Assembly: GCA_943788985.1 (NCBI GenBank)
Contig: CALSSJ010000007.1
Coordinates: 1-64,000 of the forward strand
Direction: 5' to 3'
Source of the DNA: an uncultured Lentisphaerales bacterium
GTDB lineage: Bacteria; Verrucomicrobiota; Lentisphaeria; JABSQK01; UBA12247
Length of the DNA stretch: 64,000 nt
Shown here piece by piece: positions 51,310 to 64,000 of the stretch. The position numbers were made by a program, and so were the translations under genes. The notes beneath the pieces were generated by a model, which was given only the letters and a program-made list of their open reading frames with translations, was not told the origin of the DNA and made no database searches. Every line of letters starts with the position of its first letter. Position 1 is the first letter of the stretch.

Positions 51310-52383
51310 ATGAATCAACACCCGACAAATGCTGCTGATGCCTTGGCCTTGATGAAGGAAAAGGTGGGCTCAGTGATTCCGGAGTTCGAACTCGAGGCTA
51401 AGGCCGAGTTGGTCGCGGAGATCGAACGACTCAAGATTGAGCGGAATGCGATTATTCTGGGCCATAATTACATGGAGCCTGCGCTGTTTCATACGGTGCC
51501 GGACTTTGTCGGCGATTCGCTGGAACTCAGCCGCATCGCCGCGGAAGCGGAGCAGGATGTGATCGTCTTTTGCGGCGTCCGCTTTATGGCGGAAACCGCC
51601 AATATCCTGAACCCAAATAAGACGACGCTCATTCCGGCTCGCAAGGCGGGCTGCTCGCTCGCGGAAAGCATCACCGCTCAGGATGTGCGGGACCTAAGGA
51701 AAAAGTACCCGGGTGTTCCCGTGGTGACGTACATCAATACCTACGCGGATGTGAAGGCCGAGTGCGATATCTGCTGCACCTCGGGCAATGCCAATGAGGT
51801 CGTAGAATCCCTGGGATCGGAGACGGTTATTTTTCTGCCAGACGAGTTTCTGGCCAAGAATGTGGCCCGGGAAACGGGGAAGCACATCATCGTACCAACG
51901 CGCGATCCCAAGGTGGATGCCGACGTGGACTACCAGATGATCGGCTGGCACGGGCGCTGTGAGGTGCACGAGAAGTTCACAGTTGCGGACATCGCAGCGG
52001 CACGAGAGAGCTACCCAGATGTGATAGTCCTGACGCACCCGGAATGCCCGCCAGATGTGGTCGAGGCTTCAGATTTTTCGGCCAGCACGACGGCTATGGT
52101 GCGCTTTGTCCAGGCCAGCCCAGCCAAGCACTTTCTGATTCTCACGGAATGCAGCATGGCGGACAATATCGCCGCTGAGAATCCGGAGAAGGAGATGCTT
52201 CGCATGTGCAGCATTCGCTGCCCGCACATGAATGAGATCACGCTCGAGGAAACGCGCGATGCGCTGCGTGATATGCGTTACATCGTCGAGGTCCCCGAGC
52301 CAATTCGCACACGCGCCCGTCGTTCCGTGGAGCGCATGCTTGAGATCATGCCCAAACGTCAGGTTCACGCGGTCACCGATTGA
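51310..52383 (+). CDS. nadA: quinolinate synthase
   Basis: ILGHNYM, GDSLELS, FCGVRFMAET, GCSLA, YINT, CEVHE, HPEC, CPHM. Confidence 0.96.
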   Translation: MNQHPTNAADALALMKEKVGSVIPEFELEAKAELVAEIERLKIERNAIILGHNYMEPALFHTVPDFVGDSLELSRIAAEAEQDVIVFCGVRFMAETANILNPNKTTLIPARKAGCSLAESITAQDVRDLRKKYPGVPVVTYINTYADVKAECDICCTSGNANEVVESLGSETVIFLPDEFLAKNVARETGKHIIVPTRDPKVDADVDYQMIGWHGRCEVHEKFTVADIAAARESYPDVIVLTHPECPPDVVEASDFSASTTAMVRFVQASPAKHFLILTECSMADNIAAENPEKEMLRMCSIRCPHMNEITLEETRDALRDMRYIVEVPEPIRTRARRSVERMLEIMPKRQVHAVTD

Positions 52384-53783
52384 CACCCACCCGGGACTGT
52401 TGCCTGGAGTATGCGCTGGCCAGGCTGGGAAGCCAGCGCGGTATGCAGATCACTGGCGCATGTTTGGGGCTGGTAATCGTTGGGCTCTACCACTGGTTTG
52501 ATGCCCGGGTTCCGTTTCTGCTGCTGTTCAGTATCCCGACGATATTGATCCTGCTGTCGGCGGTCCAGACCTTGAGTAAGGAAGAGGACATCACCGACGA
52601 ATTGCAGCTGATTCGCATTACAGGTGCCCGACCGGTACAGGCCCTGCTGGCCGTGCTGCCTAACAAAGTGCTTGGCCACTTCGCAACGGTCCTGGCTCTG
52701 CTGCCATTTCTGGGGCTGTCCGGCGACAACGTGCTGCGCAACTGGGCGCTGGTCATCCATCTGCTGCTGGCGACCTTCGCCGTCATATTACTGAGCTGGC
52801 TGCTCCGCCTGCTTAGAGTCTTCGTGCGGCTGATGGTGATCGCAATCTTTGGCGGCGCAACGGCTATGCTGGCGATCGCGGCGACCGTCTGGATCTACTC
52901 CTCCGATGCCTCGGCGAACGCCTGCTTGGTTTGCCTCCTCGGTCACGCAATTGTGATCGGCCTGTATTGGGCCGCAGTGAGCCTGTTACAAGAAGGAGCG
53001 TACGCCCGCGTGTACGAGACAAAGCTAACGAAGCATACGGGAAAGCGGGAGCAGCGGCGCTCACGACGCATCACTGGCTCTCCCGCGGAATGGTACGTCC
53101 GCTATCATTGCCTGTGCAGGCTGTCGAACTGGGGACGCTTCTTGATCTGTCTCGCCGGAACCGCAATTCTGTATAGATGCGGTAGGGCTGTTGCCGACGC
53201 CTCGGCACTGCCGGGCGCGATATTTGGTGTCTCCCTGGCAGCGACGGGCATTCTTGCGCTTGTGTGTGAGGCCTTGACGCGCTATAACCACCTGAGTCGT
53301 CAGCACCACGACCTCCGCGCGCTTCCGCTGCGCGCCACCCCCGAGGCACTCGCGTTGTTCCTGCGTGACCCAATTGTTGGGGCACTCAAGGCACTAGCTG
53401 TCCCTTGTGTATTCATTGTGACCGGCTCAATTCTCTGCAAAAGCATCATCCCGCCGCTGATCCTCTTAGTGTTTTTTCAGACCACGGCCGTCCAGTTCAC
53501 ACTGAACTGCTGCTACCCAACCTCCAAAGATCGCACGAGGGCCCGTACCTCCCAGCTTACGGACCCCGACACTACTAGAATCTTCCATTACATGTGGAGG
53601 AAGTTCTGGCACGCTCTTGGCTTTGTCATCCTTTTTATCCCCGGGGTCGGGGCAATCCTTGCTGCAATCTGGGCAGTGAGGCTTTGGCGCGAGGGGAAGG
53701 CAATTCATGATCAGCCCCGCGACTTCTTGCCGGAGCCTAAGGCTACGGATGGCAAGCTGCCAAAAGCGGCAGGCGGGCTATAG
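52380..53783 (+). CDS. polytopic membrane hypothetical protein
   Basis: 467-aa ORF with many hydrophobic segments; overlaps nadA stop. Confidence 0.6.
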   Translation: MTPTRDCCLEYALARLGSQRGMQITGACLGLVIVGLYHWFDARVPFLLLFSIPTILILLSAVQTLSKEEDITDELQLIRITGARPVQALLAVLPNKVLGHFATVLALLPFLGLSGDNVLRNWALVIHLLLATFAVILLSWLLRLLRVFVRLMVIAIFGGATAMLAIAATVWIYSSDASANACLVCLLGHAIVIGLYWAAVSLLQEGAYARVYETKLTKHTGKREQRRSRRITGSPAEWYVRYHCLCRLSNWGRFLICLAGTAILYRCGRAVADASALPGAIFGVSLAATGILALVCEALTRYNHLSRQHHDLRALPLRATPEALALFLRDPIVGALKALAVPCVFIVTGSILCKSIIPPLILLVFFQTTAVQFTLNCCYPTSKDRTRARTSQLTDPDTTRIFHYMWRKFWHALGFVILFIPGVGAILAAIWAVRLWREGKAIHDQPRDFLPEPKATDGKLPKAAGGL

Positions 53784-53791
53784 TCCGCGCC

Positions 53792-55153
53792 ATGAAAATC
53801 GCAGCTACCTTCTTTGTGCTTGCACTCGGCATTGCTGCCCCTCATCCGGCGGTGTTGCTGTTCTGCGGGGTGTTCCTGGTGTTGCTCACTGGCTTCCCGG
53901 TGGCTTTTGCCCTTGGTGGCGTCTCGGTGCTGTTTGCCTTCGCCTACGGAAAAACCGCAGCCCTAGGGTTCCTGCCGCTGCGCATCTGGGGCATTCTTGA
54001 GAACTACGTGCTGATCGCGGTCCCGCTGTTCATTTTTATGGGCATCATGCTGGAGAAGTCGGGTATTGCCGAGGAACTGCTGGAAACCTGCGCACAGTTG
54101 CTGGGGAGGATTCGGGGCGGGCTGGCAATAACGGTGGTGCTGGTGGGGGCGCTGCTGGCCGCGTCAACCGGGATCGTGGGTGCCACGGTGGTGACCATGG
54201 GCTTGTTGAGCCTGCCGACGATGTTACGTCGTGGCTACCATGTGCCGCTGTGTACGGGGACGATCTGTGCAAGCGGGACATTGGGCCAGATTATTCCGCC
54301 CAGTATCGTGCTGGTGCTGCTGGGCAGTCAGCTCCAAGAACCGATCGGCGACATGTTTCTGGCTGCTGTCATTCCCGGCCTGATGTTGGTGGGCATGTAC
54401 CTGCTGTGGATTGTGATCTTGGGGGTAGTGCGGCCCGAGTGGATGCCGCTGGTACCTGAGGAAGAGCGGGCGGAATTCGCAAAGAACGTCTCAGTTGCGA
54501 AGATCGCACGCGCGCTGATCCCGCCGGTGCTCTTGGTCCTGGGTGTTCTCGGTTCGATCTTTGCGGGAATCGCAACTCCTACCGAAGCATCGGCTGTGGG
54601 TGTGGTGGGCGCGGGGGTGCTGGCGGCGATTCGCGGCAAGCTGAGCCTGGAAACGCTGCGCGGGGTCAGCCGCGAGACGGCCTTGCTCACCAGCATGGTC
54701 TTTATGATTCTGATCGGGGCGACCGCATTCTCGCTGGTGTTTCGCAGCCTGAATGGGCACGTGCTGTTGCAGCACACCGTGGAGAACGCCCAGCTCGGCC
54801 CGCTTCAGTTCCTACTGCTGGCGATGCTGGTGATGTTTATCGCTGGCTTCTTCATCGATTTCATCGAGATCATCTTCATCTTTGTGCCAGTGTTGATGCC
54901 AATCTGCCAGGCCTTTGGCCTTGACATGATCTGGGTGGGCATCTTGATCTCGCTGAATCTGCAGACGTCGTTTCTGACGCCACCGTTTGGGTTCGCCCTA
55001 TTTTATCTAAAAGGCGTCGCACCGCCGGAAGTATCGACGCATCAGATCTACCGTGGGATCATTCCGTTCATTATTATTCAGGCGTTGGTGGTCGCGGCGG
55101 TGTTTATCTGGCCGGAGATAGCGCTCTGGCTCCCAGGCCTGAATGGAGAATGA
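53792..55153 (+). CDS. TRAP transporter large permease (DctM)
   Basis: GFPVAFALG, AVPLFIFMG, GTLGQIIPPS, QTSFLTPPFGFALFYLKG. Confidence 0.93.
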   Translation: MKIAATFFVLALGIAAPHPAVLLFCGVFLVLLTGFPVAFALGGVSVLFAFAYGKTAALGFLPLRIWGILENYVLIAVPLFIFMGIMLEKSGIAEELLETCAQLLGRIRGGLAITVVLVGALLAASTGIVGATVVTMGLLSLPTMLRRGYHVPLCTGTICASGTLGQIIPPSIVLVLLGSQLQEPIGDMFLAAVIPGLMLVGMYLLWIVILGVVRPEWMPLVPEEERAEFAKNVSVAKIARALIPPVLLVLGVLGSIFAGIATPTEASAVGVVGAGVLAAIRGKLSLETLRGVSRETALLTSMVFMILIGATAFSLVFRSLNGHVLLQHTVENAQLGPLQFLLLAMLVMFIAGFFIDFIEIIFIFVPVLMPICQAFGLDMIWVGILISLNLQTSFLTPPFGFALFYLKGVAPPEVSTHQIYRGIIPFIIIQALVVAAVFIWPEIALWLPGLNGE

Positions 55154-55274
55154 ACTTCCACTGTCCAACAGCCAGAGGCCGGCCAAGCCAACGAATGTCC
55201 AATTTTCAAACAAAGATGGGACCGGCCAGGGGGCACTTGGAGGAGGAGATTTCACCCTTCAAACTTCAATTTTC

Positions 55275-55754
55275 CTAGAGAAAATTGATGGTCAGCGGGT
55301 AGCGCCAGAGGACGCCTTCCTTGGCTTTGATGGCCCCGATAATCGGGTAGACCACGGTGAGGATACCAAGGATGATCAGCGGGATGAAGCCGATGACAAT
55401 CAGGCAGAGTAGCCCGGAGACCACGGAATAGAGAAAAAGCGAAATGATCCAGTTTACAATCATTTTCCCATGCTCATCCACTGCGCTTGAGGTGTCCTTC
55501 TTCGCGACCCACATCGCGATGGGGACGATCAGCCCGCCGAGTGGGATCAAGTAGCCAAGCAGCTGTGTCAGGTGCATGCACAGCAGATATGTGTCTTCGT
55601 CTTTCATTAAATCACCCACTCCAGTTCCAAGATCCTTGATCACATCGCGGTCTTCTTTCAACAGCGCGGCCTTCGCCGTCTCGAACTCCTCGTCAGTCAA
55701 CGCGCCAGCGGCGTGCAACTCCTGCAGTTTTTCCAGTTCATCGCTCAGGCTCAT
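55275..55754 (-). CDS. SHOCT plus DUF4870-like membrane protein
   Basis: ELEKLQELHAAGALTDEEFETAKAALL; HLTQL..DEHGK..NW..YPL. Confidence 0.85.
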   Translation of the reverse strand: MSLSDELEKLQELHAAGALTDEEFETAKAALLKEDRDVIKDLGTGVGDLMKDEDTYLLCMHLTQLLGYLIPLGGLIVPIAMWVAKKDTSSAVDEHGKMIVNWIISLFLYSVVSGLLCLIVIGFIPLIILGILTVVYPIIGAIKAKEGVLWRYPLTINFL

Positions 55755-56068
55755 CGCCTTCCTCCATTCAGTCGCTCAGTTCGCATCCGTGCAGTTACTG
55801 TGCAGGCCACAGGTCAATCCGCAAAGCTACGAGGTGATGTTTATCGGTACTGGCATTCAGATCGAGACACCGCCGAATCTTACGCGAGGAACGGACGCAT
55901 TAGTGACGTCTATATATGTGGTGCCCAAATGATGTGCCCTCATTTGATTGACAGGTCCGACACGATACTGTTTTGGTTTACTCATCTGAGCACAATCTCA
56001 GATTCTGCGCCAAATTGATGGTGAAAATTGCCCACGCTCGACAAGATGATTAGCTTGGTTTCTTCCGT

Positions 56069-58096
56069 ATGACGCTCCGTAATTGGCTACGCGGCGGATC
56101 GCTCGGATTTCTGGGCGTGTTCCTAATCACCGGGCTCACCTATTTCAACGACAGCTTGCTGCAAGGCACGTTCCTAATCGGGAACAACATGCCGTTCAGT
56201 GTCTATGGCACGCTCGTATTGATACTGGTGGCAAACGGAGCGGTTTACGGTGTGGCACGCAAGCTGGCGCTGACCGGGCCCGAGGTGGCACTGGCCATGG
56301 GGCTGACTCTGGCAGCCTGCTGTATCCCGGGCTCGGGGCTGATGCGGACGTTTCCCAGCAGCATTATCCTGCCGCATCACTACGCCAAGACCAAGATCGC
56401 CTGGCAGAATTCTGATATTCTCTCGTACACACCCAACCAGATGCTTGTGGACGTGTCGGGCGATGAGAGCGGCGTGCTGCTCGAATATATCCAAGGACGA
56501 GACGGCAAGCCCGGAGATCCGCCGTGGGGTGCCTGGATGGAGACCCTGGGATTCTGGATCCCGCTGGTTCTGCTGATCTGGTTTGCCCTGCTTGGGCTCG
56601 CGCTGGTGGTGCATCGCCAGTGGTCGGAACATGAGCACCTGCCGTATCCCCTTGCCACCTTTGTCGAATCCCTGCTGCCGTCGGATAACGGGGAGAAGTC
56701 CAGCGTCTTTCGCAGCCGGTCGTTCTGGGGTGCCTTCACCGTGGTCTTCCTGATCTACACGAATAACTACTTGGTGACGGTCACCGAGATTCCCTGGATT
56801 CAAATGAACCTGTCGGTCGATATGCAGACGATCTTTCGCTACTTTGGGATCGTGAGCCCCGGACGAATGGGCGCGCTGACCATTTACTTCAGCGTCATCG
56901 CCTTTGCCTTTTTCATTGCCACGCACGTCTCGTTTTCGGTCGGGATCTCGGCGTTTCTACACGCCATTTTGGTTACAGTGCTGGTGGGAGCTGGTCTAAA
57001 TATCAACGACGGCGGCTATTTCGCACCGAATCCGCAGAAGTTCATGATCTTCGGGGCATTCCTGATGACGGCGCTGATCGTGGTCTATATCGGCCGAGAC
57101 TACTACAAGCGCGTCGTCATGGCAGCAGTGGGCGCTGGTAAAGGCGGGCAGAAGATTGAGAGACACGCCATCATTGGCCTCTGGCTGGCCGTAGTTGCGA
57201 CCATCGTAGCAATCGCCTGGATTACGCAATTGGGGCTGGACTGGCAGATTTCGACGCTGTACATCCTTTTCACCCTGATGTGTTTCTTTATTCTCTCCCG
57301 CATCCTCGCCGAGACAGGGCTGTTTTTCGTGCAGGCGTACTGGCTGCCATGCACCATTCTCATTGGCGCCCTGGGCCCCCAGGCGCTGGGTACCTCAACC
57401 ATGATCACGTTACTGCTGCTCAGTATGGTCCTGCTGGTCGATCCGCGGGAGGCGTTTATGCCCTTTATCGTGAATGTGTTGCGGGTCTCGGATCGCAAGA
57501 AGGTGAAACTTCCAGCCATGAGCGGTGGCATCATGGTCGCAGTGGTAGTCGGGCTGCTATTCTGCACTTGGTTGACCGTCGGCCTGCACTACCGCTACGG
57601 CGGCCCGATGATGGATGTCTGGGCGACAGCCATGGTTCCGGTAATGCCGTTCGATACCGTCATCAAGGAGCATCAGCGCCTGGAAGCACAGGGCACCCGT
57701 GAACAGGCAGACGCGATTTCTGGCTTTGCCCGGTTTGGCGCGGCCAAACCGCAGGAAACCGATTTCAGCATCTTCTTTGCCTTGGGAATGGGGCTCGTTT
57801 TACTCTGCACGATGGCCCGCTTACGCTGGACCTGGTGGCCGTTGCATCCGGTCGCCTTCTTGATCTGGGCGAGTATGCCAGCCTATGCCTTTGCCTGGAG
57901 CTTTCTCATTGGCTGGGGGATTAAGGCCGCAGTCATGAAGTACGGCGGTGGCACCGTCTACCAGAAACTCAAGCCGCTAATGTTTGGCCTGATCGCCGGA
58001 GAGCTCGTGGCTCTGCTCATCCCGTCACTCATCAGTATCCTCTGGTTTGTCGTGACTGGTGATAAACTCCCACCCTTCAGGGTGATGCCAGGATGA
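56069..58096 (+). CDS. large polytopic membrane protein (DUF6785/DUF6784-like, putative peptide transporter)
   Basis: 675 aa, many TMs; PWGAW..W, HRQWSEHEHLPYPL, RILAETG, WWPLHPVAF, GWGIKAAVMKYGG..Y..LKP..GLIAGE. Confidence 0.75.
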   Translation: MTLRNWLRGGSLGFLGVFLITGLTYFNDSLLQGTFLIGNNMPFSVYGTLVLILVANGAVYGVARKLALTGPEVALAMGLTLAACCIPGSGLMRTFPSSIILPHHYAKTKIAWQNSDILSYTPNQMLVDVSGDESGVLLEYIQGRDGKPGDPPWGAWMETLGFWIPLVLLIWFALLGLALVVHRQWSEHEHLPYPLATFVESLLPSDNGEKSSVFRSRSFWGAFTVVFLIYTNNYLVTVTEIPWIQMNLSVDMQTIFRYFGIVSPGRMGALTIYFSVIAFAFFIATHVSFSVGISAFLHAILVTVLVGAGLNINDGGYFAPNPQKFMIFGAFLMTALIVVYIGRDYYKRVVMAAVGAGKGGQKIERHAIIGLWLAVVATIVAIAWITQLGLDWQISTLYILFTLMCFFILSRILAETGLFFVQAYWLPCTILIGALGPQALGTSTMITLLLLSMVLLVDPREAFMPFIVNVLRVSDRKKVKLPAMSGGIMVAVVVGLLFCTWLTVGLHYRYGGPMMDVWATAMVPVMPFDTVIKEHQRLEAQGTREQADAISGFARFGAAKPQETDFSIFFALGMGLVLLCTMARLRWTWWPLHPVAFLIWASMPAYAFAWSFLIGWGIKAAVMKYGGGTVYQKLKPLMFGLIAGELVALLIPSLISILWFVVTGDKLPPFRVMPG

Positions 58097-58968
58097 GTCG
58101 CGAAATGCAGACCGTATCTTGGCTGGGCATATCTATAGACGTACCGGCGGAATGGGAATTGCTCCAATTCTCCCGCATGGCTAAGGCCGGAAATCTGGCT
58201 TGGGCCGATCGTTATGAGTTTCGCCTGGAGCTGACCTGGAAGGAAGCTGCCAGTGCCCCGGATCTCGATCGCATCATGGATGACTATAAAGCAAGCCTGG
58301 TGGAGGAAGACCAGCCAGCGCCACAGCCGACATCGTGGGGGACCTGGCAAGGCTTGGTGGATGTCCAGCCTGGCGGCATGTCCCGATATGGCCATTACGA
58401 GGAAAGCGTCGGCCGTCTGTTAGAGCTGGTTTTTCTCTGGGAGAAGGAGCGGGACATGGACTTGGAATACGCCGTGCTCAACAGCGTCAAGCCTGTGGAC
58501 CACTGGCAGGCCTTTGGCTTGGAAGTGCGAACTCCGCAATTCCTGGAAATGACCGAATGCACCGTCCAGCCGGCCAATGTGCAGTGGACCTTCAGCGACA
58601 GTAAAAAGGCCAAGCATTCCTGGCACTTCGAGCGCATGGGCATGCTTGACGCTTGGCTCAACGTCCCGCTGGCTGCCTGGCTGCTCGGGAAGGAGCCAGT
58701 GGACCTGATCGATCGTCAGCCACAAGAAGCTCAGATCGCGGGTCATGACCTTGCCACCGTCACGGGGTTCGTGCCCGCCCTAAAATTTCCGCAGTTCAGC
58801 AAGCGCAGTGGCCGCTTTATCGGCGCGGCATGGGTCTGCCCCGTGGACAACCGCCTGTACTATGCCTCCATGATCGTGCCGCGTGACTACGAGGCCACGC
58901 CACAGCTGTTCGGCGGCAGCCTGCGTTGCTGCCCGGCCTGTACCAGCCATTCATTGGCGGCATCATGA
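58093..58968 (+). CDS. conserved-looking hypothetical cytoplasmic protein
   Basis: ATGA overlaps on both sides; two similar W-x-G-x-x-x-x-x-P segments. Confidence 0.75.
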   Translation: MSREMQTVSWLGISIDVPAEWELLQFSRMAKAGNLAWADRYEFRLELTWKEAASAPDLDRIMDDYKASLVEEDQPAPQPTSWGTWQGLVDVQPGGMSRYGHYEESVGRLLELVFLWEKERDMDLEYAVLNSVKPVDHWQAFGLEVRTPQFLEMTECTVQPANVQWTFSDSKKAKHSWHFERMGMLDAWLNVPLAAWLLGKEPVDLIDRQPQEAQIAGHDLATVTGFVPALKFPQFSKRSGRFIGAAWVCPVDNRLYYASMIVPRDYEATPQLFGGSLRCCPACTSHSLAAS

Positions 58969-59330
58969 CCGAAGATCGCAAAACCTGGCGCCTCATGCTG
59001 GCCGGTGTGCCTGTGGCAAACCAAGCCGCAAAAGTCACCTATGTCGACAACTGCGCGCGCATTCTGGTGAAGCGCCACAAGCCGCATTTCCTGATTGCGC
59101 CGCTCTCCTGGGTCATCCGCCCACGTCTTGAGCGCACGGTGGAGCTGGAAGCCCTCGGAACCTACGTGTACGAGCTCTGTGATGGAAAACGTGATGTGGA
59201 ACGGATTGTCGATCGGTTCTGCGCGCGGTACAGTCTTACCTTTCACGAAGCACGCGTGCTTGTCACCAGTTTCCTCCGGGGCTTGGTTGAACGCGGTGTG
59301 GTCGTTATCGTCAGTCCGGAGCGTTCATGA
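58965..59330 (+). CDS. PqqD-family / RRE domain protein
   Basis: VELEALGTYVYELCDGKRDVERIV..FLRGLVERGVV winged-helix RRE pattern. Confidence 0.85.
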   Translation: MTEDRKTWRLMLAGVPVANQAAKVTYVDNCARILVKRHKPHFLIAPLSWVIRPRLERTVELEALGTYVYELCDGKRDVERIVDRFCARYSLTFHEARVLVTSFLRGLVERGVVVIVSPERS

Positions 59331-60760
59331 AACAGATCGACGTCAAGGATCAGCCAAGTTTGGGCGCAGCGCGCACCCTGCGCTTGACCATCAATGGCAT
59401 TCGCTATCGCCTGTTTCGTTCCGCTGTAACCGTGACCGTGATTGTGGTCGCTATCGCCTTCCTCACCAACAGCCTGGCTGAAGGCTTGGTGCGCCGCGCG
59501 GTGGCTGCGGACACCACAAAAGAATTGAAAACAGTCGGCAAGGCCCGCTCTTGGGCGGGACAGCTACAGTCCGTGGGAACCCGCACCGGCATCCTGGATG
59601 CCTTGGTCGCTGGAGAGCCAATCTTTGGCCCCACCCCAGACGCCACGCTGCTTGGCCAACTGAGCCAGACCCAGACGCTGATCCAATCACTAGAATCGCT
59701 GTCATACGGGCATCGCCGAACGCTCGTGCATAATCGCACAGGCACCACCATGCTGGACTACTTGGCCACCACTGATCAACGCGCAGCGACCGAAGCAGCC
59801 CTGACCACCAATCGGCGGATTCGCCTCAGCGCCGAGGGGCCCGCCCTGGGAGCAATCCTCGATGCGTGGCCAACAGTATCCGCAGCGATCGACGCCGAAT
59901 CAGCGGCCCGCAAAGCCGCGCTGAAGGCCCTAGCCCCCGCCTTGGCCGGGAGTACCCCGCTGGAGTGCCTGACTGAGGCGGACGGCCCATTCGGCAAGCA
60001 GATGCTCGACGCAGGCGTACCATTCCCGAGTGCCGACAGTGCGCTCATCGCGGAACAGGCCAAGGAGGCGCTCGAGCAAGCCAAGCTCGAGAAATTCATG
60101 AGTATGGCCAGCGTACGACAGCGTGTCGCTGCGAGACAAGATCTTCTCCCCAACGATGTGACCGCGCCATACCTCTGGAAGTCGCTCCGCAGCAAAAAGT
60201 TCGCCGATTGGTTTGCGACAGCCTGCGCTGAAGAGGACCCCGAAGCGGTGCTTGCGGGAGAGCGCCTGCAGGAGCTGGCCGAGCACTACCGCGCCCATCG
60301 GCGCCTGGAATCCGCCGCAGCCCTCGGCGCCGGGATCAGTGGTGGTTTTCTTGGCCTTGGCCCGCGCCTTGGCTGGCTGCTGTTGATCTCCATGATGGTC
60401 TGTGGTGTCGGCATCGCTAACGCCATGTTGATGACTGTCACCGAGCGTTTCAAGGAAATTGCCACCCTTAAGTGCCTGGGGGCGCTGGATGGTTTCGTGA
60501 TGTTGACCTTCGTGCTTGAGGCCAGCCTACTCGGACTGGCTGGCGGCTCAGTCGGGTCGGTCTTGGGGATGGGAATTGGGCTCATGCGCATGACCACCGT
60601 ATATGGTAGCCGCGCGATCAGCGCCGGTAGCGTCACCGAGTTTTTGCTCGGTATTCTCGCGGCCGTTGCGGTGGGGATCCTGCTGGCCATTGCTGCCGCC
60701 ATCTATCCCTCGCTTCGCGCCTCGCGCCTCGCCCCGATGGAGGCGATGCGCGTAGAATGA
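59327..60760 (+). CDS. FtsX/MacB-type ABC permease
   Basis: N-terminal TM, large extracytoplasmic domain, GIANAMLMTVTERFKEIATLKCLGA, YPSLRASRLAPMEAMR. Confidence 0.9.
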   Translation: MKQIDVKDQPSLGAARTLRLTINGIRYRLFRSAVTVTVIVVAIAFLTNSLAEGLVRRAVAADTTKELKTVGKARSWAGQLQSVGTRTGILDALVAGEPIFGPTPDATLLGQLSQTQTLIQSLESLSYGHRRTLVHNRTGTTMLDYLATTDQRAATEAALTTNRRIRLSAEGPALGAILDAWPTVSAAIDAESAARKAALKALAPALAGSTPLECLTEADGPFGKQMLDAGVPFPSADSALIAEQAKEALEQAKLEKFMSMASVRQRVAARQDLLPNDVTAPYLWKSLRSKKFADWFATACAEEDPEAVLAGERLQELAEHYRAHRRLESAAALGAGISGGFLGLGPRLGWLLLISMMVCGVGIANAMLMTVTERFKEIATLKCLGALDGFVMLTFVLEASLLGLAGGSVGSVLGMGIGLMRMTTVYGSRAISAGSVTEFLLGILAAVAVGILLAIAAAIYPSLRASRLAPMEAMRVE

Positions 60761-60800
60761 AGAGGCACCTTCCAGAATTCCCCAAGGTAAGGGCGCCGGC

Positions 60801-61595
60801 ATGAGCGAAACATCCACCGAACAGCCAGCAGCGGCTCCTGCTGGCGCTGCTTCTACCGACGCCCCGGTCATCATTCGGACTGTCCACCTGAAGAAGGAAT
60901 ACGACCGAAAGGGTGTGATTACGCAGGCGCTACGCGGTGTGGACATGACGATCCATTCTTCGGAATTCATCGCGGTTATGGGACCGTCCGGCTCCGGAAA
61001 AAGTACCTTTTTCAATATGATCGGTGGCTTGGACAGCCCCTCGTCTGGCCGTGTCTTCATCGACGAGGTAGACGTCGCCCAGCTGTCAGCCGGAGAACTC
61101 GCGTTTCTGCGCTGCCGCAAGATCGGCTACATTTTCCAGAGCTATAATCTCATCCAGTACCAGACCGCACTGGAGAACGTCACCACGCCCATGGCTTTCG
61201 CGGGAGTAGATCCTGATGAGGCGCGACGCCGTGGCATGGAACTGCTCGATCTGGTCGGGTTGAAAGACCGCTGGTTTCATCGCCCTATCGAAATGTCCGG
61301 TGGCCAGCAACAGCGTGTGGCCATTGCCCGCTCACTGGCAAATAACCCCATGATCTTGCTGGCCGACGAGCCCACGGCCAACTTGGACCTGCGGACGGGC
61401 CAGGAAGTGCTAAACATCTTGCAGCGTGTGAACGAAGAGAAGCAGGTGACCATTATTTGTGCCACTCACGATCACCGCATGTTGTCTATTTGCGATCGCC
61501 TGATCTGGATTCGCGATGGCGGCATCGAGCGCATCGCTCGCCGAGACGAGGTCAACATCGAGGTTGGCGCCATCGAAGGCGAGGAGGACGAATGA
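60801..61595 (+). CDS. ABC transporter ATP-binding protein (LolD/MacB type)
   Basis: GPSGSGKST, IFQSYNL, MSGGQQQRVAIAR, LADEPT, ATHD. Confidence 0.95.
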   Translation: MSETSTEQPAAAPAGAASTDAPVIIRTVHLKKEYDRKGVITQALRGVDMTIHSSEFIAVMGPSGSGKSTFFNMIGGLDSPSSGRVFIDEVDVAQLSAGELAFLRCRKIGYIFQSYNLIQYQTALENVTTPMAFAGVDPDEARRRGMELLDLVGLKDRWFHRPIEMSGGQQQRVAIARSLANNPMILLADEPTANLDLRTGQEVLNILQRVNEEKQVTIICATHDHRMLSICDRLIWIRDGGIERIARRDEVNIEVGAIEGEEDE

Positions 61596-64000
61596 AAATC
61601 GGTTCTGCCAAAATTCTTGCCGCTTGCCTAAGCCTGTGTCTTTCCCTCTACGCTGGGACATTTAGCGAGGACACAGCGGCGCTGACTTCCACCCCCACCC
61701 GCCTGCTGGGCACCCCTGGCAACGACGCGGCACATGCCTATGTCATCAGCCAGCTCAAGGAAGCAGGCCTAGCCCCGATTGAACAGCCATTCCGCTTTGC
61801 CAAGTATGCCGCCGGGCGTAACGAGTTGGTAGCAGCTGGGAAGTCGCTGCAGTTGCAGCCGATGGCGCCCAATATGATCATTCCGCCAGTCACACCTCTC
61901 GAGGGGGTTACCGGCTGGCTGATTGACGTAGGCGACGGCTCGCTGGCCAACTATCCGCACCCGCTGCCGGACGGCATGATCGTGGTGATGGACTACGCAA
62001 ACGGAGACCGCTGGCGTGATGCGTTTCGCTGCGGAGCCCAGGCCGTTATCTTTGTCGGCGCCCCCGGAGATACCTCGCGCGAATCACAACATTCACTGGC
62101 TCCAGCCAACCTCATACGCGCCTACTACGGGGGCCCACGCTCCGCATTGCCCGTGGCACAGACAGTCACCTTGCACGTCAGTGCGAACTGGGCACCGACC
62201 ATCGCGACCAACGTCATCGCAGTCGTACGAGGGACAGATCCCATCTATGACGAGGATCGCGGTCCAGAGTCTGTGATACTTTCGGCACCGCTCGACTCGT
62301 CAGGCGAGGTCCCACACCGCGCCCCGGGCGCACGCAATGCCGCAAACATGGCCGCCTTGCTCCAAATCGCCCGCGACTACCAAGCCAATCCCCCGCGGCG
62401 CAACACCATCTTCGCGTTCCTGGATGCGGACGCTTGGGGACATCTCGGTGCCGGCTACTTCTACCGTATTTTTGAGCGTGAAAAACTGCTTGGAAACGCT
62501 GCGCTGAGCATCCGCCAGACCTCTTCCCAGGACGAACAGAGCCATTGGGAAACCGTGCTGGAGCAGCTAGCCCAAGATGACCCGTTCAGTGGCGACAAAG
62601 GCGCGCTGATTCTGAAGGAGATGCAGGACTTGGCGTCCGAGAAAGTCGACCGACTCAACGAGGACATCGGCATACTCCGCCTCGCCCAGGAACGGGACAA
62701 GGCAGACCATGCAGCCGAGATTGAGGATCTGGCGACGGAGAAAACCGAATGGAATACGATGCGTCGGTTCGTGGCCACCGAAGACCCAGCAGATTTCAAT
62801 GAGACCGTTGACAAGCGTCGAAGCCAGCTAATTACTGAGTTTCAGGAAAATATCCAAGCTCGCAAGGAAGAACTGGCTACGAAAACCCTCGCCCAAGTGG
62901 CAGAGGCAGCGGTTTTGGAGCAGGCCGGAGGCCCCTTTGTCTCCCTCCATATCTCACTTGCCCTGAGCGATGCCAGCGAGCACTGGGGCGTGGCCATCGG
63001 CGGCGCTTCGCTCTCGCGCACCGGGTACGATATTGACGGCCTTTATTCGCGCATCGGCGCCGCCTGTCAGTCCGCCGCCGCAGACTGCGGATCCGAAATG
63101 ATGGCCGTACAATCGTTCGACGGCAGCCTGGCCAGAGGGGACGCGATCATGGGGACATCCCGCTACACGCACAGCGGTGCTATCGCTGGCATGCAGGGAA
63201 TCTACAACATTTCGCTGGCAACAGTATTCGACTCACGCCCTCGCGAAGGCACCCCCCAGGACACCGTCGCCGCGCTGAATCTCCCGCGCCTTGCCGCGCT
63301 GGCCGCCGACCTGCAGCCCTTCCTGCGCAAGCTGATCGATGAGCCGATGATTTCTAGCGCCCGCGGGATTCGCCCAAGCGCCTTCTACCTTTGGCCCGAG
63401 TTTGACGGGGATAAGGTTAGGGGCGCGCTGGCGGTAAGCGCCGCAGGCGGCAGTTCGATGCCGAATAAACGCACGGTAAACGTCATGGTTTGGTCGCAGC
63501 TGGGCGATCACGCAGCTGCGATGCAGGCAAAGCACATCCCCGGATTTCACGATGGTTTTTTTGCCTTTACAGATCACTCGGGTGCCCTCGAAATGGGGCC
63601 ATTCCCGAGCGTTCGGCGGCCGTCATGGGTCTATGGCTTTGCCGCCACTTTCGACGACCGTGGTGCGGTCACTCGCGCCCTGGCCGACGACAGCGCCTCC
63701 AAGCTTCACGAACGGATGAATCTGTTCGACGTAAGTCATGGCGCCGTTATCCTGCCAGCCACGCTTGACGCCACCTTCAAAGCTGACGTGTTGGACGCCA
63801 GAACAGACGGAAAGCTTGAGCCAAAACGCAGCGCCGTCCTCACGACCGATGGTGTGACTTCCTGGTTCTGTCCCAAAAAAATCACGCGCGTCAAGCTCTT
63901 CCAGGCGGGCCACCGGGCCACCATTTCTATTCTAGGAGCCGAAGGTGAGGTCGCGACGACCGGAAGCGCGCTGGGCAAGGGAATCCCAGTATCGGGTAAA
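61592..64000 (+). CDS. secreted M28-peptidase-fold/PA-domain protein, partial (runs off window)
   Basis: Hand-translated: ATGA overlap, open for 803 codons; signal peptide; RLLGTPGN, NVIAVVRG, VILSAPLDS, APGARNAANMAALLQIAR, PPRRNTIFAFLD, EGTPQDT. Confidence 0.85.
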   Translation, partial: MKIGSAKILAACLSLCLSLYAGTFSEDTAALTSTPTRLLGTPGNDAAHAYVISQLKEAGLAPIEQPFRFAKYAAGRNELVAAGKSLQLQPMAPNMIIPPVTPLEGVTGWLIDVGDGSLANYPHPLPDGMIVVMDYANGDRWRDAFRCGAQAVIFVGAPGDTSRESQHSLAPANLIRAYYGGPRSALPVAQTVTLHVSANWAPTIATNVIAVVRGTDPIYDEDRGPESVILSAPLDSSGEVPHRAPGARNAANMAALLQIARDYQANPPRRNTIFAFLDADAWGHLGAGYFYRIFEREKLLGNAALSIRQTSSQDEQSHWETVLEQLAQDDPFSGDKGALILKEMQDLASEKVDRLNEDIGILRLAQERDKADHAAEIEDLATEKTEWNTMRRFVATEDPADFNETVDKRRSQLITEFQENIQARKEELATKTLAQVAEAAVLEQAGGPFVSLHISLALSDASEHWGVAIGGASLSRTGYDIDGLYSRIGAACQSAAADCGSEMMAVQSFDGSLARGDAIMGTSRYTHSGAIAGMQGIYNISLATVFDSRPREGTPQDTVAALNLPRLAALAADLQPFLRKLIDEPMISSARGIRPSAFYLWPEFDGDKVRGALAVSAAGGSSMPNKRTVNVMVWSQLGDHAAAMQAKHIPGFHDGFFAFTDHSGALEMGPFPSVRRPSWVYGFAATFDDRGAVTRALADDSASKLHERMNLFDVSHGAVILPATLDATFKADVLDARTDGKLEPKRSAVLTTDGVTSWFCPKKITRVKLFQAGHRATISILGAEGEVATTGSALGKGIPVSGK

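Follow-up and report, generated by a model that had tools for sequence, protein, structure and literature searches.

A conserved eight-gene cassette of two paralogous type VII ABC modules with undescribed partners in an uncultured Lentisphaerales bacterium

Introduction

Type VII ABC (ATP-binding cassette) systems such as MacAB-TolC, LolCDE, FtsEX-EnvC, YbbAP-TesA and BceAB-BceS take their role from their partner proteins. They are described as passing no substrate through themselves, the systems known are described as acting outwards, and partners can be membrane-intrinsic, as in BceAB-BceS (PMC12646458). The subject of this report is a cassette of eight genes, g1 to g8, that begins near the end of a 64,000-nucleotide (nt) stretch of DNA (the window) from an uncultured Lentisphaerales bacterium. 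The window covers positions 1-64000 of contig CALSSJ010000007.1 (C7, which ends at 74267), one of the 48 contigs of an assembly that is 83.6% complete. The cassette encodes a new variant within the type VII ABC systems, with undescribed partners.

Other described proteins resemble single parts of the cassette. Canonical members of the OPT/YSL family (PF03169) are stand-alone proton-coupled carriers, and a paper on the structure of barley YS1, of this family, reportedly exists. Nicastrin and the transferrin receptor have a PA/M28 fold that is non-catalytic and used for binding. Discrete proteins with the recognition element (RRE) for peptides made by ribosomes and modified after translation (RiPPs) include PqqD and the lasso B1 proteins such as TbiB1. 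For prokaryotic OPT proteins, context has pointed to peptide transport (PMC3061005). The preliminary description of this DNA, made from the sequence alone, knew of no functional characterization of the gene set. A literature search, with most subscription journals outside its coverage, likewise found no paper on the set and none with DUF6785 or DUF6784.

Organization and Conservation of the Cassette

The cassette is a conserved eight-gene unit of two paralogous modules, module A (g1-g5) and module B (g6-g8). Each module has one FtsX-type permease, one ATPase and one polytopic permease (putative in the case of g1). The genes are as follows, with lengths in amino acids (aa) and transmembrane segments as TM.

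g1: 56069..58096, + strand, 675 aa, polytopic membrane protein with DUF6785 and DUF6784
g2: 58093..58968, + strand, 291 aa, cytoplasmic tandem PsbP/Mog1-fold protein
g3: 58965..59330 (ATG at 58965), + strand, 121 aa, PqqD-like (RRE-like) small cytoplasmic protein
g4: 59327..60760, + strand, 477 aa, FtsX/MacB-type permease with a ~290-aa extracytoplasmic loop between TM1 and TM2
g5: 60801..61595, + strand, 264 aa, MacB/LolD-type ABC ATPase
g6: 61592 (ATG)..64000, continuing to C7 ~66315, + strand, giant FtsX fusion with a PA/M28-like ectodomain
g7: C7 ~66308-68297, past the window, OPT-family permease
g8: C7 68294-69025, past the window, second ABC ATPase

The six co-directional genes of the preliminary description are borne out by the listing of open reading frames (ORFs), on the + strand from 56069 to the window end. 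ATGA is indeed read at 58093, 58965, 59327 and 61592, which gives 4-base overlaps between g1 and g2, g2 and g3, g3 and g4, and g5 and g6; the spacing between g4 and g5 is 40 nt. The proposal of one tightly packed operon is supported. Its extent had to be revised, as the six genes are present but the system runs past 64000 to a total of eight, the last ending at ~69025 on C7, and the window truncates it. The single type VII ABC system described earlier was also confirmed in its FtsX/MacB-type parts, but there are two paralogous modules rather than one.

The order g(1)-2-3-4-5-6-7-8 was kept in all four fetched relatives with strong g2 matches. A scan with a g2 alignment, using one genome per species, gave 63 loci in Lentisphaerae/Victivallales, Verrucomicrobia, Kiritimatiellia, Planctomycetota, Omnitrophota, Sumerlaeia and Fibrobacterota, and all counts from it are conditional on the presence of g2. 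At these loci g3 follows g2 in 53 of the 58 that have space for it. Of the 43 with at least 9 kilobases downstream, 32 carry all three of g4, g5 and g6, and g1 is at the locus in 17 of 38. Median intergenic gaps within the cassette are ≤57 nt across loci, and the flanks of the cassette are not conserved across relatives.

The other 11 of the 43 loci with at least 9 kilobases downstream had at least one of g4, g5 and g6 missing from the matches. Nine of these have g2 or the g2-g3 pair as the sole cassette match (L064 also has a distant match to a g8-type ATPase); the other two have two copies of g1 (L046) and a g8-type ATPase upstream (L047). The flanks of seven such loci are unrelated, with DNA ligase, GH1, SurA-like, PNP_UDP_1 purine/uridine phosphorylase-family, staphylococcal-nuclease-like and DUF4143/AAA_14 ATPase proteins, and the neighbour in L035, one of the seven scanned flanks, has no family match.

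The association was also found at the level of whole genomes. In an even sample of 301 genomes of the phylum, with thresholds of E≤1e-20 for g7-type proteins, E≤1e-20 for g1 and E≤1e-10 for g2, g7-type genes occur in 44 genomes, g1 in 36, g2 in 24 and none of the three in 257. All 36 genomes with g1 have a g7-type gene, and all 24 with g2 have g1; because kin in the sample are not independent, this nesting is a pattern and not a statistic. At least eight genomes carry g2 on one contig and g7 on another, and the association is therefore not mere adjacency. The earlier expectation that the parts co-occur in other genomes therefore holds, as they are neighbours in relatives and associated genome-wide when unlinked. 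The observation is more than chance.

Single modules have been found as well. Locus L019 consists of g6-g7-g8 with a g2-family protein (hhalign 98.3%), and Pfam detected no PqqD-like ORF there. Locus L020 (G011) and relatives show a reduced variant, made up of an 830-aa DUF6785/6784 protein, a 218-aa FtsX protein nearly devoid of an outer domain, and an ATPase along with a member of the g2 family (hhalign 96.6%). That single modules exist indicates that each module can probably work alone.

The OPT-Family Permease and the Giant FtsX Fusion of Module B

The permease g7 belongs to the OPT family. An unbroken orthologue (L016:12258-14252) matches Pfam OPT with 49.7 bits against a cut-off of 25.8, and the L019 copy with 33.2 bits; the two frameshifted halves of g7 in its own assembly have no Pfam match. 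Relatives of g7 form at least 3806 clusters, several of them named 'peptide transporter' or 'OPT/YSL family transporter' by NCBI, and PF03169 is annotated on most of the 120 relatives listed. Mean column identity is 69% over 18 orthologues from several classes, a very strong conservation such as is expected of a working carrier. Sequence searches of the PDB with g1 and g7 profiles gave no matches.

The largest protein of the cassette, g6, has a full length of about 1570 aa. By hydropathy it begins with a signal-like N-terminus and an outer domain to ~residue 884. Three TM segments and a short cytoplasmic linker come next; the FtsX part follows as TM1, an outer domain of ~260 aa and TM2-4, and a cytoplasmic tail of ~175 aa ends the protein. 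The portion in the window matches Pfam Peptidase_M28 (9e-06, 26 bits against a cut-off of 21.3) over profile positions 1-78 of 193 only. The preliminary description had guessed that a C-terminal FtsX domain lay past 64000, and this domain was found both on reading further contig DNA (FtsX 2.6e-6 in the broken g6 itself) and in an unbroken orthologue of 1615 aa, which matches M28, MacB_PCD (8.6e-4, under its cut-off) and FtsX (5.6e-12). PDB matches of the FtsX part are MacB, LolC/E/F and YtrF. For the cytoplasmic tail, Pfam gave no match, ESM Atlas gave no usable match and hhalign against g2 gave 0.3%.

The N-terminal ectodomain was compared through a profile of 25 regions, which matched the PA/M28 aminopeptidase 2ek8 (9e-11), M28 3iib (1.4e-6), nicastrin (1.4e-6) and transferrin receptor 1 (~7e-4); YwaD also matched. 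A ~250-aa helical insert lies within the ectodomain. Against 2ek8, four of the five mappable metal-site motif positions are replaced in the organism's own g6 (the fourth ligand, Asp/Glu, is unmapped): His by Pro, Asp-Asp by Asn and a gap, Glu-Glu by Asp-Ala, and the last His by Gly. Among 34 orthologues the first His is retained in three and the bridging Asp in none. Three (L075, L022, L043) have Glu at the first position of Glu-Glu, followed by Asn or Ala, and none has a Glu-Glu pair. The M28-fold pseudo-peptidase of the preliminary description is thus corroborated, with the fold matching 2ek8 and the metal ligands replaced in the protein and its orthologues. The replacement residues are themselves conserved, in the motifs Asn-Leu-Asp-Ser-Phe-Gly, Pro-Gly-Ala-Arg-Gly-Ala-Ala-Asn and Asp-x-Gln-Ala-Arg-Gly-His, which suggests that the pocket has been kept and put to a new use.

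A paralogous module was found in the same genome at C14 54535-61471 (L084). It encodes an FtsX protein with a large ectodomain that does not resemble M28 (hhalign 0.1%), together with an OPT-like protein that shares 41% identity with g7 and, just below the cut-off (22.5 bits), a PqqD-like ORF; the contig ends before any ATPase. A different ectodomain on the same chassis is expected if the ectodomain sets specificity, and the comparison suggests that ectodomains are interchangeable on one chassis.

Other relatives of the cassette genes lie elsewhere in the genome. An orphan 791-aa DUF6785/DUF6784 gene at C11 105066-107441 has no FtsX or ABC neighbour. Two further FtsX-ABC sets are located at C17 156369-158936 and 190539-192499, and one of them comprises a 341-aa FtsX protein and two ATPases adjoining Opp-type permeases and a TPR protein.

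The DUF6785/DUF6784 Protein and the ABC Parts

Pfam finds both DUF6785 (6.8e-75) and DUF6784 (1.9e-20) in g1. The preliminary description had named both domains correctly, but DUF6784 is not a separate gene and shares g1 with DUF6785. At least 12 hydrophobic segments are seen by hydropathy. The channel or transporter role given to the polytopic protein in the preliminary description is, for g1, a putative one. The relatives of g1 form 221 clusters, all with DUF6785 and DUF6784 and named only 'hypothetical' or 'DUF6785 family protein'.

The FtsX-type permease g4 matches Pfam FtsX (2e-12) over residues 352-469, its C-terminal part only. Its PDB matches are 5xu1 (6.2e-11) and MacB (2.1e-9), followed by LolF, YtrF and LolC/E, all over TM2-4 only. 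Hydrophobic segments lie at 29-47 and 341-457, and the outer loop between them (~290 aa, helical) is assigned to no family. The ATPase g5 matches Pfam ABC_tran (5.2e-31), and its Walker A, SGGQ, DEP and H-loop motifs are intact in all 36 full-length orthologue hits. The second ATPase, g8, was scanned with Pfam only; it matches ABC_tran, and its motifs are intact in both of two orthologues. The two ATPases are ~50% identical to each other, and each is 70-80% identical to its own orthologues.

The nearest NCBIfam models are LolD (TIGR02211, 7.6e-64), DarD, FtsE, DevA and MacB for g5, and MacB and LolC/E for g4. Identity with LolCDE, FtsEX or MacB proper was considered and rejected, as all equivalog cut-offs are widely missed: LolD 215 against 307.75, lolCE 38 against 362, FtsE 196 against 264.85, FtsX_Gneg 17 against 255, and MacB 41 and 192 against 966. 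A defence system was likewise rejected. PADLOC gave only generic LolE_TM and ABC-ATPase domain matches, matched nothing in g1, g2, g3 or g7, and holds no model for the cassette.

The Cytoplasmic Pair g2 and g3

The protein g2, which the preliminary description left unexplained, has no Pfam or NCBIfam match and no hydrophobic segment by hydropathy. In a library of 1.84 billion proteins its family, for which Pfam has no model, numbers 914 representatives at E≤1e-3; the stricter threshold of ≤1e-30 leaves 335. An AlphaFold2 model (predicted local distance difference test score 94.2, predicted template modelling score 0.89) was compared with known structures by Foldseek and VIA-align and consists of two PsbP/Mog1-type domains in tandem. 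Residues 1-137 gave Z 12.8 to TplEi and Z 10.4 to Mog1, and residues 136-280 gave Z 11.8 to cyanobacterial PsbP, with more matches to DcrB, LpqN and Tsi3; the halves score Z 10-12.8 against PsbP, Mog1, TplEi, DcrB and LpqN. Foldseek matched PsbP at 7.6e-5 and TplEi across the whole length. As modelled, this is a binding fold and no known enzyme fold. The columns of His218, Cys249, Cys279 and Cys280 are 98-99% conserved in 113 sequences, and this set makes a putative metal site plausible.

The preliminary description had proposed a cytoplasmic RRE in g3. The protein does match Pfam PqqD (9e-10, 39.2 bits against a cut-off of 23.4), but it falls below the cut-offs of all NCBIfam PqqD/RRE models (PqqD, lasso, GeoRSP, Scm). 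A profile of 49 orthologues has a weak likeness to the lasso RRE TbiB1 (E 0.0042) and to PqqD-family chains (0.0098-0.13). Two proteins from the g2 search, P0075 and P0083, have g2 and a PqqD-like protein fused via a 40-50-aa linker; these may be natural fusions or gene-calling read-through.

The presence of a PqqD-like protein raises the question of a RiPP pathway. The earlier statement that no RiPP tailoring enzyme is visible also holds past 64000: no radical SAM, YcaO, lasso B2/C or other RiPP enzyme occurs from the cassette to the contig end (5 kb downstream). No precursor gene was found either, as the gaps of the cassette hold no conserved small ORF and none of the small ORFs upstream of g1 is precursor-like or conserved. 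The flanks of relatives contain no RiPP tailoring enzyme or precursor. With both missing from cassette, gaps and flanks, the reading as a RiPP cluster was rejected. That such a cluster, biosynthetic or for immunity, has its enzymes elsewhere is highly improbable: a PqqD-family protein does adjoin ABC transporter genes, but its constant partner is the non-enzymatic PsbP-fold g2.

Assembly Quality and Neighbouring Genes

Two cassette genes are broken in the assembly. The reading frame of g6 ends at C7 65662 within the FtsX domain, and the remainder of the FtsX module with the cytoplasmic tail is a 218-aa ORF in a different frame; g7 is read as two overlapping ORFs with one frameshift. The sites are at C7 ~65628 (L002 4629) in g6 and C7 ~67345-67349 (L002 6346-6350) in g7. 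Both genes are unbroken in relatives, with about 1570-1740 aa for g6 and about 665 aa for g7. Contigs of four public runs (X1, X2, X5 and the RNA-library run X14) were compared over C7 65299-67699. Three of the four (X2, X5, X14) have one extra base behind the g6 site, while X1 (depth 3) is the same as the window, and all four have one base fewer at the g7 break. As g6 and g7 are intact in other assemblies of the same organism, the breaks seen here are assembly errors or rare variants.

Further single-base frameshifts lie in a downstream trypsin-like gene (L002 8600-9727) and in the C14 paralogous module (54885-61119). The assembly seems error-prone, and broken genes in it are therefore not to be read as pseudogenes.

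The listed runs with near-identical DNA number 20, come from 10 studies and are without exception marine or estuary metagenomes. Two of them, with 0.83 and 0.66 of the sampled words, are RNA libraries. Contigs from RNA libraries cover the stretch, which is no proof of transcription. Scans for promoters and terminators gave no more than shuffled sequence would lead one to expect.

Just downstream of the cassette, at L002 8600-12572 (C7 ~69599-73571), the trypsin-like serine protease (split) is followed by large secreted proteins with Ig/cadherin domains; neither is kept beside the cassette in relatives. On the upstream side, the window encodes a 467-aa polytopic membrane protein at 52380-53783 (+), upstream of a TRAP-type permease-like ORF, and a small divergent membrane protein at 55275-55754 (-) whose N-terminus resembles a short SHOCT-type helix, both named from their translations only.

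Discussion

What does the cassette do? We tentatively favour, at somewhat less than an even chance, a type VII ABC mechanotransducer of two modules, which would capture peptide-like oligomers outside and pass them to OPT-type permeases for uptake. ATP turnover by g5 and g8 would set the outer domains in g4 and g6 in motion. In g6, the pseudo-peptidase ectodomain would be the receptor for the end of a peptide-like oligomer, a role proposed because nicastrin and the transferrin receptor use the same fold to bind and not to cut. The captured substrate would then be handed to g7, perhaps also to g1, for uptake. On the cytoplasmic face, the g2-g3 pair could accept the incoming peptide, or else serve to gate or regulate the system. 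The modules might assemble as a single heteromer, g4.g6 with g5.g8 after the pattern of LolC.LolE, or else as two homodimers.

The reasoning starts from what each part lacks. Type VII modules have no transmembrane pathway and exert their mechanical effect outside the membrane, and an OPT permease is a pathway with no motor, hence the proposal that ATP-driven movement of the outer domains serves the carrier. The cassette pairs a motor and an OPT-type carrier (putative in the case of g1) once per module, which suggests the same. Uptake is favoured because characterized OPT proteins import, and because of the type VII/OPT pairing and the binding fold. A peptide- or protein-handling role, already proposed in the preliminary description, is what we infer from these parts, and the same holds for what is transported, in which direction, and for every contact among the parts.

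Several points weigh against uptake. We know of no type VII system that serves uptake; all those characterized work either outwards or inside the envelope. Export of a ribosomal peptide is a more natural setting than uptake for a cytoplasmic PqqD/RRE-like protein. Both g4 and g6 have a large loop between TM1 and TM2, where type VII permeases have a Porter/Sabre periplasmic core domain. Pfam finds no MacB_PCD match in g4, and in the g6 orthologue MacB_PCD scores 20.1 bits, below the cut-off of 27. Among OPT proteins, uptake is known from eukaryotes, and the prokaryotic members were uncharacterized as of 2011 (PMC3061005). Finally, the kinship of g1 to the OPT family is not established. Pfam OPT matches none of 19 g1 orthologues even at E≤10, an ESM Atlas structure search with g1 listed no OPT cluster, and hhalign of g1 against g7 gave 24.7% (E 7.9e-4, 326 columns) and, with deeper alignments, 21.5% (171 columns). 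A weak kinship may nevertheless be read from the sequences: the two share one loop motif in hhalign, S-D-x-E-x-L-P-aromatic-P, and the ESM Atlas feature neighbours of g1 are 'peptide transporter' clusters at 0.75-0.78, which is a lead only. With BLASTP, comparison of g1 and the g7 halves yielded no better than E 0.042, at a single motif.

Could the cassette export peptides instead? In such a machine g3 would recognize a cytoplasmic peptide via an RRE-type cleft with g2 as a scaffold, g1 and/or g7 would translocate it, and the MacB-type modules would act on it outside, by expulsion or processing, in the way that MacAB-TolC handles periplasmic enterotoxin. The PqqD match of g3 and its weak profile likeness to lasso-peptide RREs are in keeping with this, as are the tight coupling and apparent occasional fusion of g2 and g3, and the known systems of this type do act outwards (PMC12646458). 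However, the short gaps of the cassette leave no precursor gene, and no tailoring enzyme, membrane-fusion protein or outer-membrane channel lies in the cassette or its unconserved flanks. The NCBIfam PqqD and RRE equivalogs are all below their cut-offs, and the direction of characterized OPT proteins is inward. We consider export unlikely.

A role confined to the envelope, like that of FtsEX-EnvC, YbbAP-TesA, LolCDE or BceAB-BceS, would have the ABC modules pull out a lipid or lipoprotein, or act as the switch of an outer enzyme, with the polytopic proteins as membrane-intrinsic partners or sensors in place of carriers. The FtsX/MacB-type permeases and LolD-like ATPases suit this role, and so do the long helical insert of the g6 ectodomain and the helical outer loop of g4; BceAB-BceS is a precedent for a membrane-intrinsic partner (PMC12646458). 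The trypsin-like protease just downstream in this genome is a further point for it, but the relatives do not share this neighbour. Scores fall far short of the Lol, FtsE/FtsX and MacB equivalog cut-offs, other FtsX-ABC sets in the genome could fill those roles, and the strong conservation of g7 across classes is that of a working carrier. This role, too, seems rather improbable. What probability remains falls to some explanation beyond those listed.

Taken further, the uptake reading would define a hybrid transporter class, in which a channel-less type VII motor drives or gates motor-less OPT permeases, a swappable receptor ectodomain sets the specificity from outside, and an RRE-like/PsbP-like pair inside receives or reports on the imported peptide. 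We regard this generalization as doubtful. If true, importers would count among the type VII ABC systems, and the RRE fold would have work to do beyond the biosynthesis of natural products. Uptake itself, if true, would be a new way for abundant marine heterotrophs to acquire oligomers, and prokaryotic OPT proteins as well as DUF6785/DUF6784 would gain their first role. An RRE-type fold would moreover be placed outside RiPP biosynthesis, which bears on genome mining that uses RREs as RiPP markers. Whatever its function, the cassette occurs commonly among uncultivated bacteria, those of the PVC group and others. Classification of type VII ABC systems goes by their partners, of which few types are known, and the cassette adds a partner set absent from the papers found.

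Comparison With Known Systems

Like the described type VII ABC systems, the cassette has FtsX-type permeases with a large outer domain between TM1 and TM2 and MacB/LolD-type ATPases. Unlike them, it has as partners a permease of the OPT family, a DUF6785 protein, a PsbP-fold protein and a PqqD-like protein, and the literature searched describes none of these as a type VII partner. It also differs in having two distinct permeases and two distinct ATPases, one permease (g6) carrying a ~860-aa pseudo-peptidase ectodomain and three extra TM segments, and no MacA, TolC, LolA, EnvC or TesA-like gene lies in the cassette.

The permease g7 resembles the OPT/YSL family in passing the Pfam OPT cut-off (as the unbroken orthologue) and in its length of about 665 aa, the size of prokaryotic OPT proteins. 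In contrast to the stand-alone canonical carriers, g7-type permeases are encoded with an FtsX fusion and an ATPase, and g1 is not detectably OPT by Pfam. The g6 ectodomain is similar to nicastrin and the transferrin receptor in its profile matches and in the absence of the di-zinc ligands, but it is bacterial, is fused to an ABC permease, and has a ~250-aa helical insert and conserved replacement residues of its own. Like discrete RRE proteins, g3 is small, stand-alone and of the PqqD family. It differs from them in having no radical SAM, B2 or C enzyme partner and no nearby precursor; its constant partners are instead a PsbP-fold protein and a transporter.

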